A stretch of DNA of 64,000 nt from positions 1-64,000 of the IMG/VR virus record IMGVR_UViG_3300014656_000001; one strand, given 5' to 3'. Below, piece after piece: positions 42,141 through 62,867 of the stretch. The notes beneath the pieces are model-generated. The model saw only the letters and a list, made by a program, of their open reading frames with translations, was not told the origin of the DNA and did no database searches. Each line of letters begins with the position of its first letter. Position 1 is the stretch's first letter. The translations under genes and the position numbers were made by a program. The stretch is from a virus. Lineage: Duplodnaviria > Caudoviricetes.

Positions 42141-43706
42141 ATCTAAAAATTATACCATTATTGCTTACCTCGATCGATTCCCCGTACAGATGCTTATATA
42201 GTGAGCAAAACTATTTACCTGCCTGGATCGATGCCCAGTGCCCAAACTTTGAAAATAATTGGGTGTGGCTGCCCCCTACTACACAAGACGTTTTCGGGTT
42301 TTTCATTCTCTATCAAATCTATAGACTGTGTAGACTAATAAACGGTTACTCTACTTAGTCTATAGAGTAAGTAGGGCGGTTGTGCGTGTGTATGGGTGTT
42401 TGGGTATGGGTGACTGTGGCTGGCGTTTCAACGTTTCATGAACATCTATTCATTCCATCTATCTATCCATATCCAAGTAGATTGAAATGGACATCTATTC
42501 ACTAGAGAGAGTATGTACCCATAGAACGTTCTGTATCATGCATCTACTTGGATATGGATATCTATATGCTTTGTTGTCTGGTATCCATCCCAGTCTACTA
42601 TCCAAAGTATAGCTAGAACGCTTTCTAATACTCTATGTGACAACTTTATTGAGCTGTCAGTCATTTCTACTCTTAATCGGCTTTGAATCGCTTATATGTG
42701 ACGCATGGTAAACCTCTCTACTTAGTCTATAGAGTAAGTAGAGAGTGAGAAGTAATTGCACAATATGGGTAAACTTTGCTCACTCTCTAGTGAATAAGTA
42801 GAGTATGCTTTATATTCTTTATATTTATAGACTTATGGAAGCAGGTAGTATGGGTGTAGTATAATAGCGGGCAAATGTTGCGCAAGTTTACATAATGCTT
42901 AGTACATGGGTAGGGATTTATACACTAGATATTGTGTATTTGTCTATGCTTTATATTCTTTATATTGGCATAGTGATTGCTTACAGTATGGGCGTAAGTC
43001 AAATCTGACTTACAGTTCTTTGATAACTCTCCAAACCACTAGTATCAAGCAATCCAGACGCTAGTCTTGAGATTAACTATCTCACATAGCAGAATATCAA
43101 TACGCTATGGGATGATTGAGCGCAAAGCTCAATCTCTCTCTTTATGCTCTCCAGCAAGAGCCGGCTAAATGCCCCATATTGAGAGATTCGTGATTGACTT
43201 GAGAAAGTGACCACTATTCCCATTTACGCTAAAAAACACCAAATGTTTAACAGTGTGAATCTCTCTCAGAGATTAATCATTGGAAATGGGAATATGAAGC
43301 GATTCCATTCACTCCAGAGATTAATGAAAATCTCGATATACTGGAATCCAATAGACTATATGCGTAAGAACTATAGTCTATGATATTTGACAATCTAACT
43401 TCTATTTATCGAACGATTCGAAGAATCTATGAGATTCACTATTCGTGCGATAGTTGTCACAGCTGGACTTGACAATAAGATACCCAATAGATAAATAGAC
43501 TTCCCTGTATATGTAGTAGCATAACTGGCTAGCAAGCTACCCTACTACAAATTATAATGAATAGCACATTTGAATATTCTCTTCTCTTCTCTTTCTCTAG
43601 CAAAGAGAGAGAAGATATTGCATTATTGTAGTATCTTCTCTCTAATTGCCATTCCAAGCGATAGTTTGGAATGAGTAAAATTAGAGAAAAGAGAGAGAGT
43701 AAAAAA

Positions 43707-43988: not shown

Positions 43989-44072
43989 TATCAAAAAGAC
44001 TATACAAAATTACTTGTATAGTCCATTGATACTATATAGTATCTAAAACCAAAAGAGAAAAGAGAGAGAATC

Positions 44073-44450: not shown

Positions 44451-44544
44451 TTTGGCATACTAACGATACTACACAATAAATAACTATTGTGTAGTATATT
44501 AGTATTAAAGAAGTAAAAACTAAACAAGAGAAAAGAGAGAGACT

Positions 44545-44859: not shown

Positions 44860-44943
44860 ATTGTAACACTAGTGAGAGCTCTTGCTATCGATTCAAGAGC
44901 TCTAATTAGTCGTACAATACTATAGAGAAAAGAGATAGAGAAT

Positions 44944-45180: not shown

Positions 45181-45617
45181 TTGCATTATTGTAGCTCTAT
45201 ACTTTACTATTTCTATCAATTAAGTGAAGTATAGAGCTATTCGTTTATTCTACTTAATCTATAGATTAAATAGACTTCTATACTCTATTTAGTCTATAGA
45301 TTAAATAGAGTATTCTGTACTACAGAGATAAGAGGGGAGATAAACTAAATGTAGTATGATTCCCTATAAGAATCCCTATAAAATTGAAATCTCAAAGCTC
45401 TGTAAAAAGAGAAAACGGATTACAAAACGGATTGAAAGAGAGAACGGATTATGGAACACATTATCACAGTTTTCTTAACCATATTCATCATTGTATGGTT
45501 AAGAAACGAACACAAAACGGATTAATAGATTCAAACAAGAACTGATAAACAAAACGGATTATCAGTTCTATTGAGTTTATTACTCAACAACAAAACAGAG
45601 AAAAGAGGAGAGAGACA

Positions 45618-45914: not shown

Positions 45915-45996
45915 TATTGTCACATAAGACTGATAACGGATAACGTTGTCGGTCTTGGTGAAGTATCAAACTAACAGAGAAAAGAGGAGAGATATT

Positions 45997-46523: not shown

Positions 46524-46614
46524 ATTCTAATTTCAAGAAAGAACTGATAACTGATAAAAGGTTGTCAGTTCTGTTGAGAGTAGAATACAAAACAGAGAAA
46601 AGAGGAGAGATATT

Positions 46615-46953: not shown

Positions 46954-47040
46954 TGAATAAGACTGGTAACGGATCAATCGTTATCAGTCTAGTTGGTTAT
47001 TCAACTAACCTACAACAAGAGAAAAGAGGAGAGAAATATC

Positions 47041-47913: not shown

Positions 47914-47994
47914 TCAACAGAAGACTGATAACGGATTATTGTTATCGGTCTTCGTGGATTAATAAACCCAATAAAGAGAAAAGAGGAGAGAACA

Positions 47995-49014: not shown

Positions 49015-49098
49015 TTCAAAGAGACTGATAACTGATAATAAGAGGTTATCAGTCTACTTGAGTTTAGCAACACAAAATGAGAAAAGAGGAGAGAACAA

Positions 49099-50265: not shown

Positions 50266-50369
50266 TTGCAGTATCTCTCTCAACTCTCTTTATGCTGTCA
50301 GTGAGCAATGGGGTTCACTGGCAGTAATGGATAGTTGAAACACAAAATGAGAAAAGAGGAGAGATTATT

Positions 50370-50648: not shown

Positions 50649-50728
50649 TATCTCATAGAGAACAGGTAACGGATTATTGTTATCTGTTCTAATGAAGTAT
50701 CAAATCTGAGAAAAGAGGAGAGATTATT

Positions 50729-51457: not shown

Positions 51458-51481
51458 ATCTGAGAAAAGAGGAGAGATAAA

Positions 51482-53632: not shown

Positions 53633-53660
53633 TTGACTTCTGTAGGTACAGATGTATAAT
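53633..53660 (+). promoter_or_regulatory. sigma70-like promoter
   Basis: TTGACT-16-TATAAT. Confidence 0.6.
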
Positions 53661-54512: not shown

Positions 54513-54541
54513 TTGACTTAAAAGATATAAAACAGTATAAT
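54513..54541 (+). promoter_or_regulatory. sigma70-like promoter
   Basis: TTGACT-17-TATAAT. Confidence 0.7.
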
Positions 54542-54565: not shown

Positions 54566-55066
54566 ATGCGAACAAAACACACACACCTACCTGTCAAAAA
54601 CCATTTCAACTTAATCAGACGAGTATGCTGGAGGTTTTGCAAAAAGACCCGTTTGGACTATGAAGATGCCGTCCAAGGTTCTATTTTGTTCGTGCTGGAA
54701 AGAGCACATCTTTACTCCCCTAATAAGGGAAAAGAAACAACCTTCATACACACAGTCACAAAAAACTATCTGATTAACTTAATCAGAAGAGAAGTAAGAA
54801 GAAATCATGGGTGTCTTGTAGAAGATATGGACATACGAACCACAGGCCGTGAAGAAATAGAAAACCTATTACTTCACGAATCTCTATCAGAAGATGCTAT
54901 AATGCTTCTGAATTACATAGAGAATAAATTAGTACCTTCCAGAAGAACCCGGCTAGCTCCCGATCTTCGAAGAGAGGTTAAAAACTATGGCACTCATCAA
55001 ATGGGTAAACGTAGAATGATAAAAGCATACAGAGAGTTAAGAAAATGGTATGCCGAACTTCAATAG
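54566..55066 (+). CDS. sigma-70-like RNA polymerase factor
   Basis: Region-2-like LIRRVCWRF...YEDAVQ...YSPNKG..TTFIHTVTKNYLINLIR. Confidence 0.65.
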   Translation: MRTKHTHLPVKNHFNLIRRVCWRFCKKTRLDYEDAVQGSILFVLERAHLYSPNKGKETTFIHTVTKNYLINLIRREVRRNHGCLVEDMDIRTTGREEIENLLLHESLSEDAIMLLNYIENKLVPSRRTRLAPDLRREVKNYGTHQMGKRRMIKAYRELRKWYAELQ

Positions 55067-57200: not shown

Positions 57201-57334
57201 GACGAGCCGAAGTAAAACGGTTATCATAGGGTCTGAGGGTTGTGGGTTCAAATCCCACCTTTTCGCTTAAAGCTGGAAAGTAGCTCAATGGCAGAGCATC
57301 AGAATTAATCCGTTTACAACAAACATAGCTCGTC
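57201..57334 (+). ncRNA. yrlA: YrlA-type Y RNA (permuted tRNA mimic)
   Basis: gacgagc/gctcgtc stem with GCCGAAG; T arm gtggg-TTCAAAT-cccac, loop-closed acceptor stem, then D arm gctc-aatggca-gagc. Confidence 0.85.
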
Positions 57335-57351
57335 TCTTATAAAACAAAAAA

Positions 57352-57489
57352 GTGTGAGCCGAATTGTGATCGATTACCACTTGTAATGGCGTGATGCAGG
57401 TTCGAATCCTGTCTCTTCGATCTCTAATCGGGGAGTAGCTTAAACGGTAGAGCGCGTATAAACTCGATTGCTATCCAGTACTGCTCACA
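57352..57489 (+). ncRNA. yrlA: second YrlA-type Y RNA (permuted tRNA mimic)
   Basis: gtgtgagc/gctcacac stem with GCCGAA; T arm gcagg-TTCGAAT-cctgt; closed acceptor stem; D arm gctt-aaacggta-gagc. Confidence 0.85.
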
Positions 57490-57556: not shown

Positions 57557-59191
57557 ATGGCACAACCACTGCACAAACAATTCAATCCAACACAAACCCC
57601 GCAAAGCAAACCCATTCCCGGCAAAGTGGGAAAACGGCAAGTCAAGAACGATGCTGGAGGTTATGTATTTCAGATCGACAAATGGGAACAACTGAAGAGG
57701 TTTCTCACACGTGGAACATCGGGTGGAACATATTACTGTGGAGAACAAAAACTCACAGTGGAAAACGCCGAATGTGTTATCGAGTGTCTGGATGAAGACA
57801 CACAGAAGACGGTGAAGATCATCGAAGAAATCAGCACTGAGGGCAGAGCACCACGCAATGACCCTGCTTTGTTTGCTCTGGCATTGGCTTCTTCCAAATC
57901 AGAATACACAGAACTGTTCACTCTCAAAGATTCGCTACTCAAAGTAGCACGAATCCCCACACACCTGTTCATCTTCATCAAATATGCAACAGAGATGCGG
58001 CGATGGGGGAGAGCACTCAAAACAGCAGTCGCTCACTGGTACGAATCAAAAAACTGTGAAAGTCTCATTTACAACGCACTCAAATACCGGCAACGTGAGG
58101 GCTGGACACACGGTGATGTTATTCGTTTGTCTCATCCCTCTCCCGTTCACTTGAACGAAACAACCAACGAACGAAAACCCGTCTTTGAGTATATGAGAAA
58201 GGGCGGAAGTGCGAATGTACCCCACTTCCCAGAACGCATCAAAACGTTTGAGACAATGAAGATCATGACAGAATACTCTAAACCGAATCTCAACAAGATT
58301 CTGGATGTCATCAAAAATGACAAATTCTTCACATGGGAGATGCTCCCTACATGGACACTTACACACACATCCACATGGACTGAATTGTTACCTCATCTTC
58401 CCATGACAGCTTTGCTGAGAAATTTAGGCCGCATGACATCCATCGGTGTTTTTGATTGTGACAAAAACCTCGAACATACCGTAAAGCATCTCACAAACAA
58501 GAGCAGGTTACAAAAGTCCCGCATTCATCCAATCAACGTTCTGATTGCAATGTTAACATATCGCCAAGGACAAGGTGTAAAAGGCAGTCTCAACTGGACA
58601 CCTCACAGTAATATCATAGATGCCTTGCATGACGCTTTCTACTTAAGTTTCAAAAATGTGGAACCCACAAACAAACGTCTGTTGGTTGCTGTGGATATTT
58701 CAGGAAGCATGGGATGGATAAATCTCATGAACGTTCATGGATTTACACCTCGCATGGCGGCAGCTGCTTTATGTACTGTGTTTGTACAAACAGAAAACCA
58801 CACTGACATTGTGGCTTTCAGTCACACACTAACTCCAGTACCTATCTCCAAACGGCAAAGACTGGATGATGTTGTGAAAACATTTCTAAACTATGGCATG
58901 GGTGCAACTGACTGTGCTCTCCCCATGATCTACGCCTATCAAAACAGAAAAGTGTACGATGCTTTCATTATCTACACTGACAACGAAACATGGTATGGAA
59001 GTGTGCATCCCAAACAAGCTCTGGACAGATACAGAAAAGAAGTGAACCCAGAAGCAAAACTGATTGTCCATGCCATGGAATCCACAAACAAAAGCATTGC
59101 CGATCCCCTCGATCCAGGCATGTTGGATATCAGTGGTTTTGACTCAGCAGCTCCTCAAATCACAAATGACTTCATACGAGGTTCTTTTTGA
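57557..59191 (+). CDS. rsr: Ro60/Rsr TROVE-domain RNA-binding protein
   Basis: NDAGGYVF...LKRFL..GTSGGTYY, KYRQREGWTHGDVIRLSHP, MTALLRNLGRM, vWA AVDISGSM, FIIYTDNET. Confidence 0.95.
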   Translation: MAQPLHKQFNPTQTPQSKPIPGKVGKRQVKNDAGGYVFQIDKWEQLKRFLTRGTSGGTYYCGEQKLTVENAECVIECLDEDTQKTVKIIEEISTEGRAPRNDPALFALALASSKSEYTELFTLKDSLLKVARIPTHLFIFIKYATEMRRWGRALKTAVAHWYESKNCESLIYNALKYRQREGWTHGDVIRLSHPSPVHLNETTNERKPVFEYMRKGGSANVPHFPERIKTFETMKIMTEYSKPNLNKILDVIKNDKFFTWEMLPTWTLTHTSTWTELLPHLPMTALLRNLGRMTSIGVFDCDKNLEHTVKHLTNKSRLQKSRIHPINVLIAMLTYRQGQGVKGSLNWTPHSNIIDALHDAFYLSFKNVEPTNKRLLVAVDISGSMGWINLMNVHGFTPRMAAAALCTVFVQTENHTDIVAFSHTLTPVPISKRQRLDDVVKTFLNYGMGATDCALPMIYAYQNRKVYDAFIIYTDNETWYGSVHPKQALDRYRKEVNPEAKLIVHAMESTNKSIADPLDPGMLDISGFDSAAPQITNDFIRGSF

Positions 59192-60087: not shown

Positions 60088-60117
60088 TTGACGAACCTTT
60101 TAACACGTGTGTATAAT
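60088..60117 (+). promoter_or_regulatory. sigma70-like promoter
   Basis: TTGACG-18-TATAAT. Confidence 0.6.
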
Positions 60118-60240
60118 GTTATTAGCAGATTGTTTATTAGCAGATTGTTACTTTATCCAAAGAAAGAGGGTGATTATCATGCGCCGGGGATAAAACCCCC
60201 ACTCCAAAAAAACTCAACCCTGTTGAAATTTAGTGTGTTT

Positions 60241-60381
60241 TTAGCAACAACGGTCAGCTCTGGAGAGTGCCTGACCGTTGTACTAAAGGCACATTTCAAA
60301 GCCGCACTCTCTTTTCTCTCTCTGCTGTGCCTGGTGTGTGCCATAGGGGAATACTCATCACGTTATTGGTGGGTATTCCCC
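60241..60381 (+). ncRNA. candidate structured RNA / leader of the replication operon
   Basis: 10-bp stem caacggtcag/ctgaccgttg, ggcaca/tgtgcc stem, 15-bp hairpin 60346-60381, possible 8-bp pseudoknot gagagtgc/gcactctc. Confidence 0.5.
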
Positions 60382-60409
60382 ACAACTAAATTTTACAGAG
60401 GTATTAAAA

Positions 60410-60763
60410 ATGCCAAAAAACCCGCCTAATTTAGACACAATCCCCAAAGTAAAAGGTTTAACAGGTTATGAAACAAATGGAAATGGTATTACTTTTTTAC
60501 CTGAAATAAATAAAGTGGTTTATTGCAAAATCATGAACCTAAAATTTGAAGATGGAAAAACCACCTCTATAAAAACCAAACCAAAACCCGTTCACAAATT
60601 AATAATACTCGGTATTTATTTATATTATTTAGCGATGAATGCTAAAAATATAAAAACCGTCCCCATAAAAGAACAAGAAAAGAAAACGGGAGTGGATAAA
60701 AATAAAATACAAAAAGCAAGAACAGAACTAAAAAAGATGGGGCTTATCGAGGAGGTTATATAA
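60410..60763 (+). CDS. HTH-like protein
   Basis: C-terminal KTGVDKNKIQKARTELKKMGLIE wHTH-like segment. Confidence 0.6.
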   Translation: MPKNPPNLDTIPKVKGLTGYETNGNGITFLPEINKVVYCKIMNLKFEDGKTTSIKTKPKPVHKLIILGIYLYYLAMNAKNIKTVPIKEQEKKTGVDKNKIQKARTELKKMGLIEEVI

Positions 60764-60764
60764 A

Positions 60765-62090
60765 ATGACACGCACATTAAACCAAATACCAGACATAAAC
60801 ACATATTCATCAGATGGAATAAAAAACGATCCAATACCTCTTTTTATCGAATCATTCTCCCGAATTTTAGCACAAGATAATCCAAACGACATGCTGATCG
60901 TTTACCTCATTTTATTACTTGTATCAAGACTCAGGGGCAATCCAACAATCGATGATGAAATGCGTTACACAGATATGGGAAGGGACAGAATAAAAAAAGC
61001 AAAAAAACGACTAATGGAACATGGATTGATAGAACAATATCGGGTATTGGAAAATGGAAAATTTCATAGTTATTTTTATTATTGTCTAACCCGCCCAATA
61101 CAAAATCCCATAAAACCAAACGATTCTGATCTGGATATTGTGAGTGATATACTCGAATCTGCCGAGGACTGGAAACCAGTCCGTGGAGAGATAAAACTAC
61201 AGTCACGAGGACTGAAATCCAGTCCGTGGATGGATGTCCCTGAAAAAGAATCACTTATGTTGTTAAAAGACTCAATTTTGAAGCAAAATAACAACTCACG
61301 AGGACTGAAATCCAGTCCTCGTCAAAACACTGATTTTATTGGAGATAGTGACTCAAGTTTACATAATACTTTTTTGGATAAGAAGAAAAAAGAAAAAAAA
61401 GAAAGTTCTTTTTCCCCCCCTATAACCCCCTCTTTATTTCAAAGAAATAAAAAGAAAAAAGAAGAACGGGGGTGTGTGCCCGCGCACGATACGTCTGTAG
61501 TTTTGGAAGAATCACCCAAATCAACAGAAGGTGATAATGAACTTGGAGATTTAAGCTTTGAAAATATGAACCTTCCAAATCAAAAAGAGTACCCGTTCAG
61601 CGATGGTGTATACCTCCAATCCAAAAACAAGCTCCCGCTAAAGTTAACCTCCAATAAAGAATTTATGAATACCTGGGCGATGTACTTTTTGTACCGCAAA
61701 GAAATAAAAAAACAAATTACGAAATTTGCCCTGCCGGGAATGTTCACTGTGCTTTCATCCATGACACCCCAAGAAGCCATCGACACAATTAACCGCGCCA
61801 TGATGAACCAGTGGACAGGTTTATTCCCAGAGAAAAAATCATTCACCCAAAAAACACCTGTCCAAATTCACGAACAGCACATGCTCCAGAGACACTACGA
61901 TCACTGGAGGCAGTGTGACAAAGAAGGTAACATGCGATGCTACACGATAGACAACACCACAAATCAGGTCTATTCCAAACCATGGCCTGAAGATGTTCTT
62001 GAACCTCCCTGGTTGGATGAATTACCTGAAGATAGCGTTCCAGACCTACATCCAGATTACGAAAGTTACCCTGAATTGTTCCAAAAATAA
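60765..62090 (+). CDS. replication initiator (lambda O-like: wHTH N-terminus, internal iterons)
   Basis: MGRDRIKKAKKRLMEHGLIE HTH; W..Y..YRK..KK C-terminal domain; adjacent DnaC-like and DnaB-like genes. Confidence 0.7.
   Translation: MTRTLNQIPDINTYSSDGIKNDPIPLFIESFSRILAQDNPNDMLIVYLILLLVSRLRGNPTIDDEMRYTDMGRDRIKKAKKRLMEHGLIEQYRVLENGKFHSYFYYCLTRPIQNPIKPNDSDLDIVSDILESAEDWKPVRGEIKLQSRGLKSSPWMDVPEKESLMLLKDSILKQNNNSRGLKSSPRQNTDFIGDSDSSLHNTFLDKKKKEKKESSFSPPITPSLFQRNKKKKEERGCVPAHDTSVVLEESPKSTEGDNELGDLSFENMNLPNQKEYPFSDGVYLQSKNKLPLKLTSNKEFMNTWAMYFLYRKEIKKQITKFALPGMFTVLSSMTPQEAIDTINRAMMNQWTGLFPEKKSFTQKTPVQIHEQHMLQRHYDHWRQCDKEGNMRCYTIDNTTNQVYSKPWPEDVLEPPWLDELPEDSVPDLHPDYESYPELFQK
61166..61420. other. 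candidate replication origin: three palindromic iterons plus A-rich tract
   Basis: GGACTG-N5-CAGTCC at 61166, 61209, 61302; A/T run at ~61370-61420. Confidence 0.65.
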
Positions 62091-62261
62091 CCTCCAAATA
62101 AGCGATTCTAAGCGACTTTTTTTAGTCTACCCATACTGAGAGTCGTTTTTTGAAAAAAAATGCAGTGGTACCCCCTAAACGGGGCTAGAATTGGCATCCA
62201 AAATCATAGTTCCAGACCCCAGACCCCCTCTGGGTGTCAAAATCGAAGGGAGAAGAGCAAA

Positions 62262-62867
62262 ATGATAGGCCATCCATGGAGATTTGAGTCTTTTGGCTCA
62301 TACGAAAATGCGCACATGGAAAACTGGTGTGACAAGTTGGAAGTTCCCCCCCACTTCCAGAGTGCACATTGCTTGTCAGACCCTAAAGTAAAGATCACAG
62401 AAAAGAATATTGAAAAATCGTATTATGTGTATGGGGAAACCAGATGCGGTAAGACACATGCTGTTTGTGCTTTGTTGAAATACAGAGCCATGATACAGGT
62501 GAGCAATCGTAAGTATACACCTGATTCTCTATTTGTCTCAGTTCCCGTCATGCTGGAACAGTTGAGGCAGTCGTATAAGGATGTGATTTTAGATTTCCCA
62601 CATGAGAATGAACCTACTCTGTTTCACAAGGGAAAAAATTTGTATCATTTAGTGCTAGATGATTTATGCGCTGACAAAATTTCCCAGTGGGGGTGTGATG
62701 TGTTGTTTTTGCTGTTGGATCATAGATACAATAATAATCTTCACACAGTAATCACCTGCAATCTCCCCATGGGAAAGATTGCAAACATTGTTGGAAGAAG
62801 AGTACATTCACGTATTGCCAGTATGTGCCATCCAGTTCTTGCGAATGGGAGAGTGGTATTCAAATGA
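62262..62867 (+). CDS. DnaC/IstB-like helicase loader ATPase
   Basis: GETRCGKT, LVLDDL, LLDHRY, ITCNL, RIASMC. Confidence 0.85.
   Translation: MIGHPWRFESFGSYENAHMENWCDKLEVPPHFQSAHCLSDPKVKITEKNIEKSYYVYGETRCGKTHAVCALLKYRAMIQVSNRKYTPDSLFVSVPVMLEQLRQSYKDVILDFPHENEPTLFHKGKNLYHLVLDDLCADKISQWGCDVLFLLLDHRYNNNLHTVITCNLPMGKIANIVGRRVHSRIASMCHPVLANGRVVFK

Follow-up and report, generated by a model that had tools for sequence, protein, structure and literature searches.

Introduction

Phages known to shut off their own early genes through the ribosome-binding site do so either with proteins, as in the case of T4 RegA and RegB, or with the single-target immunity RNAs of temperate phages, c4 and CI. In T4 it is an endoribonuclease (RegB) together with a repressor (RegA) that shuts off the phage's own early mRNAs via their ribosome-binding sites, and the CI RNA of P4 is comparable to the c4 RNA of P1 and P7. 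The latter is a structured RNA derived from the 5' part of its operon, with exposed loops that cover a ribosome-binding site and block translation (PMC12197685). Pairing of loops with Shine-Dalgarno (SD) regions is also used by SprX (PMC4005690) and by the mycobacterial 6C RNA (PMC6486639), whose C-rich or UCCC loops pair with several mRNAs.

In this article, I will discuss a stretch of phage DNA of 64,000 nucleotides (the window), taken from the start of a virus record that is complete at 79.9 kb and bears direct terminal repeats. Toward its end, ahead of the replication-initiation genes, lies a strongly folded RNA leader that is predicted to present an open pyrimidine loop, and on the strength of complementarity and modeled folding I would tentatively propose, at less than even confidence, that this anti-leader loop pairs in trans with the leaders of 13 small-gene cassettes located many kilobases away.

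A pyrimidine tract opposite the cassette leaders

A first-pass annotation, made from the letters alone, had noticed that positions 60307-60319 (CTCTCTTTTCTCT) are the perfect reverse complement of the leaders of genes 43707, 44073 and 44545, and counting confirms it: this is the sole reverse-strand copy of the 13-mer AGAGAAAAGAGAG in both the window and the whole 79,903-bp virus record, and the plus strand carries the 13-mer at 43683, 44054 and 44527, each time preceding a small gene, with no further copies in the 79.9-kb genome (three on one strand and one on the other; the tract is not common elsewhere). The same annotation held that the core of the tract complements nine further 16-nt leaders and the leader of gene 44944, and here too the count agrees, with 13 copies of the 10-mer GAGAAAAGAG on the plus strand and one on the minus strand (60309-60318), the former being the three 13-mer sites, 44925 and the nine 16-mer leaders, always 10-25 nt ahead of a start codon. 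An alignment of the 13 leaders leaves this 10-mer, and nothing beyond it, as the one block without variation; the flanks vary. Read on the plus strand, the anti-leader loop is a 17-nt pure-pyrimidine tract, CTCTCTTTTCTCTCTCT (60307-60323), and counts among the five pure-pyrimidine runs of at least 11 nt that this strand holds between 42 and 64 kb. The minus-strand reading of the tract as a real leader was rejected, the purine tract there preceding merely a 3-codon frame, and the sharing of a 10-mer, GGTGTGTGCC, with 61471 is within chance.

Pairing of the loop with each leader was scored as the hybrid energy combined with the opening energies of both partners. The 13-nt perfect complements lie at 43683-43695 (gene 43707; net -8.8 kcal/mol), 44054-44066 (gene 44073; -17.9 kcal/mol) and 44527-44539 (gene 44545; -17.8 kcal/mol), and the 10-mer core ahead of gene 44944 at 44925-44934 (-15.1 kcal/mol). 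The nine copies of the 16-mer leader, GAGAAAAGAGGAGAGA, follow on the same plus strand at 45598-45613 (-17.5 kcal/mol), 45977-45992 (-17.1), 46595-46610 (-18.1), 47019-47034 (-14.3), 47976-47991 (-15.2), 49079-49094 (-7.5), 50349-50364 (-13.3), 50708-50723 (-11.7) and 51462-51477 (-12.7). Eleven of the 13 cassette leaders are therefore predicted to pair at -11.7 to -18.1 kcal/mol once accessibility is taken into account, the other two standing at -8.8 and -7.5, the former because the site at 43683 is partly structured; the cassette leaders themselves are predicted to be mostly unstructured. On the same accessibility-corrected scale, the replication genes, the mini-ORF, Ro60, gene 53713 and the sigma gene have ribosome-binding sites at -4.6 kcal/mol or weaker, because these are structured or poorly matching, and four other purine-rich leaders (51830, 52487, 55186 and 62262) reach -11.0 to -17.5 kcal/mol. 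The loop is thus predicted to recognize the cassette class along with some look-alikes, and not the genes of its own operon.

In the other IMG/VR records, the 16-mer leader is found as single chance copies only. Just upstream of the first cassette gene, at 43577-43615, a 22-nt CU tract, AGCA and a 14-nt AG tract form a CU:AG hairpin, this being a second pyrimidine tract of the same kind, but one that is paired in cis; and between cassette genes, at 45400-45560, there are five copies of a AAACGGATTA-like motif in a region that holds short frames only.

How much of this match would be expected by chance has to be asked, since the annotation itself had cautioned that both partners are of low complexity, and the caution is warranted: shuffles of the tract still match in a small share of trials. 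The 13-mer was present in 0 of 100 whole-window shuffles, a control that is too lenient because it destroys the purine runs. Shuffling the 17-nt CU tract alone, which preserves its composition, gave a perfect complement of at least 13 nt to a cassette leader in 62 of 5000 trials (1.2%), and the observed mean duplex energy between tract and leaders, -18.8 kcal/mol, was reached by 7.5% of the tract shuffles, whose mean was -14.9 kcal/mol. Compared with 2.2 Mb of other phage loci, this genome has 4-10 times the density of exact loop complements, an enrichment that arises because one paralogous leader family repeats and that does not represent independent events. The match between loop and leaders is real and its sequence-specific signal modest, slightly past that of any CU tract of equal composition; the stronger facts are that a fold of this kind is predicted to leave so long a pyrimidine loop open, and that the loop core is the very stretch in which the leaders do not vary.

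The leader RNA and the operon it opens

The promoter that had been reported upstream of the structure, TTGACG/TATAAT, proved to be a sigma-70-type promoter with 18-nt spacing (TTGACG-18 nt-TATAAT) on the plus strand at 60088-60117, directly after the primase stop codon, and it matches 11 of 12 consensus positions (a scan of genome contigs returned only mis-binned MAG contigs from many phyla, and with them no host call). Just two more near-consensus promoters of this type occur on the plus strand between 42 and 62 kb, at 53633-53660 and 54513-54541, where they precede gene 53713 and the sigma-factor-like gene 54566-55066, and none was found ahead of the cassette genes on this strand and in this interval. 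Because the cassette genes lack such a promoter, their transcription may depend on a phage factor, and because the leader RNA possesses one, it could precede or accompany its proposed targets; it might thus exist before them and act as a damper instead of a late shut-off. The "early" label that the target genes were given, and the early-to-middle timing of the proposed switch, are assumed.

At the start of the transcript (60120-60149) stand two tandem exact 15-nt repeats, TATTAGCAGATTGTT, which are the sole two copies in the genome and likely a candidate operator for some DNA-binding protein. Next come a very strong SD, AAAGAAAGAGGGTGA, and a 4-codon mini-ORF, ATG CGC CGG GGA TAA (MRRG*), together at 60159-60193 on the plus strand, in which the SD reaches into GGTG and the stop codon falls within a small hairpin loop; the mini-ORF may be a 5' stabilizer or encode a leader peptide. 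A 113-aa TTG frame at 60088-60429 was rejected as coding, since it begins inside the -35 box and is without counterpart in the closest relative (contig L058, see below).

What follows is a four-way-junction RNA domain of 186 nt (60217-60402, plus strand), with a minimum free energy of -79.8 kcal/mol and a z-score of -7.7, none of 200 shuffles being as stable. Measured against shuffles, z is -5.4 for 301 nt from 60120 and -7.7 for 191 nt from 60215, and the same four-way-junction fold recurs in longer sequence contexts. Its long closing helix, P1, pairs 60217-60238 with 60382-60402. The P2 hairpin (60240-60287; core ACGGTCAG / CTGACCGT) and the 15-bp P4 hairpin (60346-60381) bear out the two strong flanking hairpins of the earlier reading, and between them the P3 hairpin (60288-60342) holds the CU tract in an apical loop of 19 to 32 nt. 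The ggcaca/tgtgcc closure that had been read from the letters is likewise recovered by folding, GGCACA(T) at 60288-60293 pairing with either of two TGTGCC copies (60326-60331 or 60337-60342). Sequestration of the tract in a stem, which would have spoken against the original proposal, is not what the ensemble of the full leader predicts: the tract is unpaired with a probability of 0.63-0.99 per base, and opening it would cost 0.4-0.8 kcal/mol. The leader matches no Rfam family, the C-rich-loop sRNA families of the RsaE/RoxS type included, and the Rfam C4 model (RF01695) gave 0 matches at the gathering score or at E up to 10.

Between 60118 and gene 60410, neither a terminator nor any other 3' end was found. 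This makes the element a 5' leader of ~290 nt that belongs to the replication-initiation operon and would become a free sRNA only if processed. The first-pass annotation had envisaged a discrete trans-acting sRNA, and it is this part of its interpretation that goes unsupported for want of a terminator; what it said of the complementarity, the exposed loop, the strength of both fold and promoter, and the downstream replication genes is supported. The operon begins with a DnaD-like helicase-loader/HTH protein (60410-60763; PF13730, phrog_186) and continues on the plus strand with a replication-initiation O-like protein (60765-62090; phrog_678, E 1.1e-9) and a DnaC-like, IstB-like helicase loader (62160-62867; phrog_50, E 6e-21), after which comes DnaB, in a frame that runs to 64414. 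The region 60395-60412, with the SD (GAGG, 60398-60401) and start codon of gene 60410, is predicted to be sequestered: CAG is joined to 60220-60222 at the foot of P1 (P 0.65) and GGTAT to ATGCC in a small hairpin (P 0.72), and SD and AUG are unpaired with a predicted probability of only 0.0-0.3. With both of them predicted to be paired, a cis role in translation of the initiators is plausible whatever the loop does.

Two further features of the operon deserve mention in their own right. Inside the O-like gene, the region 61380-61480 combines a stretch of 26 purines, a run of seven C and another purine stretch, and would be a candidate replication origin by analogy with the lambda ori, which lies inside the O gene. 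Right after the dnaB stop codon, at genome positions 64415-64640 and so past the end of the window, there is a large and strongly folded RNA with a long closing helix and a GGTTCAATTCC T-loop-like hairpin.

Relatives of the locus

Neither megablast nor sensitive blastn of the leader found close relatives in GenBank phages, the relatives in IMG/VR were primases only, at 46% identity or less, and the DnaD-like and O-like proteins had none. Metagenomes, by contrast, contain hundreds of primases related at 36-58% identity, and the closest with DNA examined is L058, a 1.7-kb contig (metagenome Ga0172380) whose primase is 57% identical. Its layout after the primase matches that of the window, with a TTGCAT-17-TATAAT promoter, a strong SD and mini-ORF, and several hairpins; the mini-ORF (1440-1476, MLALDG*) has six codons, a very strong SD and its stop codon in a hairpin loop, and a 12-bp hairpin presents a 36-nt loop containing ACTCTCTTTCTCTTTC (ACTCTCTTT-CTCTTTC) in a leader with z = -7.5. 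Conservation of the tract, on which the original proposal had been made to depend, is thus seen in the only close relative, the two loops being identical at 15 of 18 positions with one gap. The stems that carry them cannot be aligned (GGCACA/TGTGCC in the window versus GGGGCAAGGGAT/ATCCCTTGCCCT in L058), nor can the remaining intergenic DNA, and such retention of the loop while its stem has changed suggests that selection acts on the loop sequence itself. The multi-hairpin leader with its CU loop is kept in L058, the order of the hairpins differs, and the contig, which carries no cassette genes, ends before the next gene.

Farther out, the picture is heterogeneous, and many distant relatives are without any intergenic region after the primase. 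Across 80 metagenome primase loci, a homologous CU-loop hairpin occurs in L058 alone. The CU tracts of L059, L061 and L063 are within stems or paired with the next SD, and in L063 and L059 these CU-rich intergenic tracts are predicted to pair in cis with the SD of the next gene. Among about 160 distant relatives there is no consistent anti-leader after the primase, no clear enrichment of pyrimidine tracts at this position, and no consistent presence of complements to multi-copy leaders. A degenerate pattern of the loop gave at least 117 matches in IMG/VR, none of them beside a related primase, DnaD-like or O-like gene, and the Rfam models found no matches in the leaders of L058, L059, L061 and L063. 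In L007, a distant and AT-rich relative, a type II hammerhead ribozyme (L007:5279-5346; 34.1 bits against a gathering score of 37, E 6e-5) sits in the intergenic region downstream of the primase module.

The window also carries a Ro60/Y RNA module, located upstream of the leader. A phage Ro60 (Rsr) orthologue with TROVE and Ro60 vWA domains is encoded at 57557-59191 and is preceded by two tandem YrlA-like Y RNAs, at 57214-57319 (38.1 bits) and 57367-57473 (27.3 bits), both matches being under the Rfam gathering score of 69. The single Rfam "tRNA" match (57274-57420) is chimeric, joining the D-arm of the upstream YrlA-like RNA to the T-arm of the downstream one. Many actinophages have annotated Ro-like proteins, and the module is absent at the corresponding position of L058.

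What else the loop could be

The location of the domain and the predicted sequestration of the SD of gene 60410 look like those of a purely cis-acting leader, which counts against the trans model, and I consider purely cis control of translation doubtful in itself and yet nearly as likely as the trans reading. The junction would then hide the ribosome site of gene 60410, the loop would be a standby or S1 platform or simply structural, and the complementarity would be a by-product of composition. The domain directly precedes gene 60410, whose SD and AUG are predicted to be paired; L063 and L059 likewise sequester the SD of the gene at this position; a CU loop kept in two phages fits a constant host partner, such as the ribosome; and the order-specific signal of the match is modest. 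Such control leaves unexplained, however, that the core of the loop is the invariant leader 10-mer and that the match is perfect over 13 nt, and S1-dependent standby binding is documented mainly in Proteobacteria. Judging by its SD style, this phage would have a host whose 16S tail is long and of the CCUCCUUUCU type. It is unlikely that the complementarity has no function whatsoever, with the structure serving the stability or processing of the operon mRNA and the tract being a conserved spacer or the relic of an inverted leader copy. The low complexity argues in this direction, given that CU tracts of the same composition already average -14.9 kcal/mol against the observed -18.8, as does the strong SD with a mini-ORF near the 5' end, an arrangement that the 5' stabilizers of Gram-positive mRNAs resemble; yet the loop is conserved at 15 of 18 positions where stems and flanks are unalignable, and long pyrimidine runs are rare on the sense strand (five of at least 11 nt in 42-64 kb).

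A cis anti-Shine-Dalgarno, in which the loop pairs with the SD of the mini-ORF (AAAGAGGGTG with CACTCTCTTT) or with that of gene 60410 to create an alternative fold that gates translation, is very unlikely. An 11-bp duplex with the mini-ORF SD is possible at -15.0 kcal/mol, and L058 retains the CU loop as well as a mini-ORF with a strong SD, but after opening costs the net energy falls to -4.6 kcal/mol (mini-ORF SD) and -2.4 kcal/mol (60410 SD), the ensemble leaves the tract unpaired, and the pairing is non-specific, as the SD of the window pairs better with the L058 loop (-19.4 kcal/mol) than with its own (-15.0 kcal/mol). Even less probable is a site for a pyrimidine-preferring protein, whether through rut-like loading of Rho and attenuation, a cold-shock protein or a phage RNA-binding protein: an unstructured run of 17-19 nt rich in YC dinucleotides in a long untranslated leader would suit it, and so would a loop sequence that is kept while its stem changes, but Rho normally needs far more single-stranded RNA than this tightly folded leader leaves, and the analysis turned up no candidate protein. 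A role as another Y-like RNA for the phage Ro60, which is encoded 1 kb upstream, is scarcely credible. Ro60 (57557-59191) and two YrlA-like RNAs are indeed nearby, and vertebrate Y RNAs carry loops rich in pyrimidines; still, no YrlA or Y_RNA match was obtained in 60088-60410 at E up to 10, and in L058 the primase is directly preceded by a small Cys-rich protein gene with no Ro60/Y RNA module between, so that an element occurring there without an adjacent Ro60 removes the idea of a Y RNA for the upstream Ro60.

The trans model and what it would mean

Under the trans anti-leader model, the strong host-type promoter just past the primase gene would make the mRNA of the replication-initiation operon, of which the first ~290 nt would be non-coding and consist of the strong-SD mini-ORF followed by the 186-nt four-way junction, one arm of which would display the 17-nt pyrimidine tract open in its apical loop. 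In trans, this loop would form base pairs with the purine-rich leaders ahead of the 13 cassette genes (43.7-51.5 kb; core GAGAAAAGAG), covering their Shine-Dalgarno region and excluding 30S subunits, such that one RNA could damp the whole gene set, and the active form would be either the intact operon leader or a fragment cut from it. What the analysis shows is the complementarity, the fold, the predicted accessibility of both partners, a loop sequence that one relative has kept, and the setting within the operon; that the RNA accumulates, pairs with its partners in vivo and blocks their translation, and when in infection it does so, I infer. The 11/12 promoter would suit the abundance that an RNA must reach to titrate many mRNAs. 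The model makes a prediction for the closest relative as well, namely that the leaders in L058 should have the core GAGAAAGAGAG.

Trans pairing would explain why an identical 10-mer is kept before 13 start codons, and one loop reading a private leader tag on a gene set would amount to RNA-only timing of the lytic program. An extended version, which I regard as quite unlikely, is a reciprocal switch in which the loop silences the cassette mRNAs as a group and the same pairing remodels the junction and opens the hidden ribosome site of the initiators. If true, the cassette genes would be shut off in step with the onset of replication and no protein regulator would be required, and the locus would belong to a larger class of phage "anti-leader" RNAs that has yet to be described. 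Should the loop act in cis only, the element would still be an uncatalogued and strongly folded leader controlling the replication initiators of a large group of uncultured phages.

Comparison with known systems

Leaders of the tisB type possess a single-stranded standby region upstream of a sequestered SD in a folded 5' leader, and the present locus is similar in having a single-stranded region 5' of an SD that is predicted to be sequestered, a comparison that fits the cis alternative; standby sites are not known to mirror the leaders of other genes. The YrlA and Y RNAs (RF02553) are likewise structured non-coding RNAs close to a Ro60 gene, but the leader matches no such model, has no tRNA-like module and is kept in L058 without Ro60 there. 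T4 RegA and RegB differ in that their effectors are proteins, whereas the effector proposed here is an RNA.

The C-rich-loop sRNAs of Gram-positive bacteria (RsaE/RoxS, SprX and 6C) set unpaired pyrimidine-rich hairpin loops against the purine-rich SD regions of several mRNAs without the need for long complementarity, much as is proposed here. However, they are free-standing, have terminators and carry several short C-rich motifs, whereas the window has a single 17-nt CU tract in an mRNA leader, without an Rfam match and with the phage's own genes as its proposed targets. The c4 RNA of P1 and P7 is also a structured phage RNA from the 5' part of an operon with exposed loops complementary to a ribosome-binding region. 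It differs in having a single target, located farther down its own transcript, and in serving temperate-phage immunity, whereas here no downstream ribosome-binding site of the same operon matches the loop well, the Rfam C4 model does not recognize the RNA, and the proposed targets are 13 leaders that lie 9-17 kb away.
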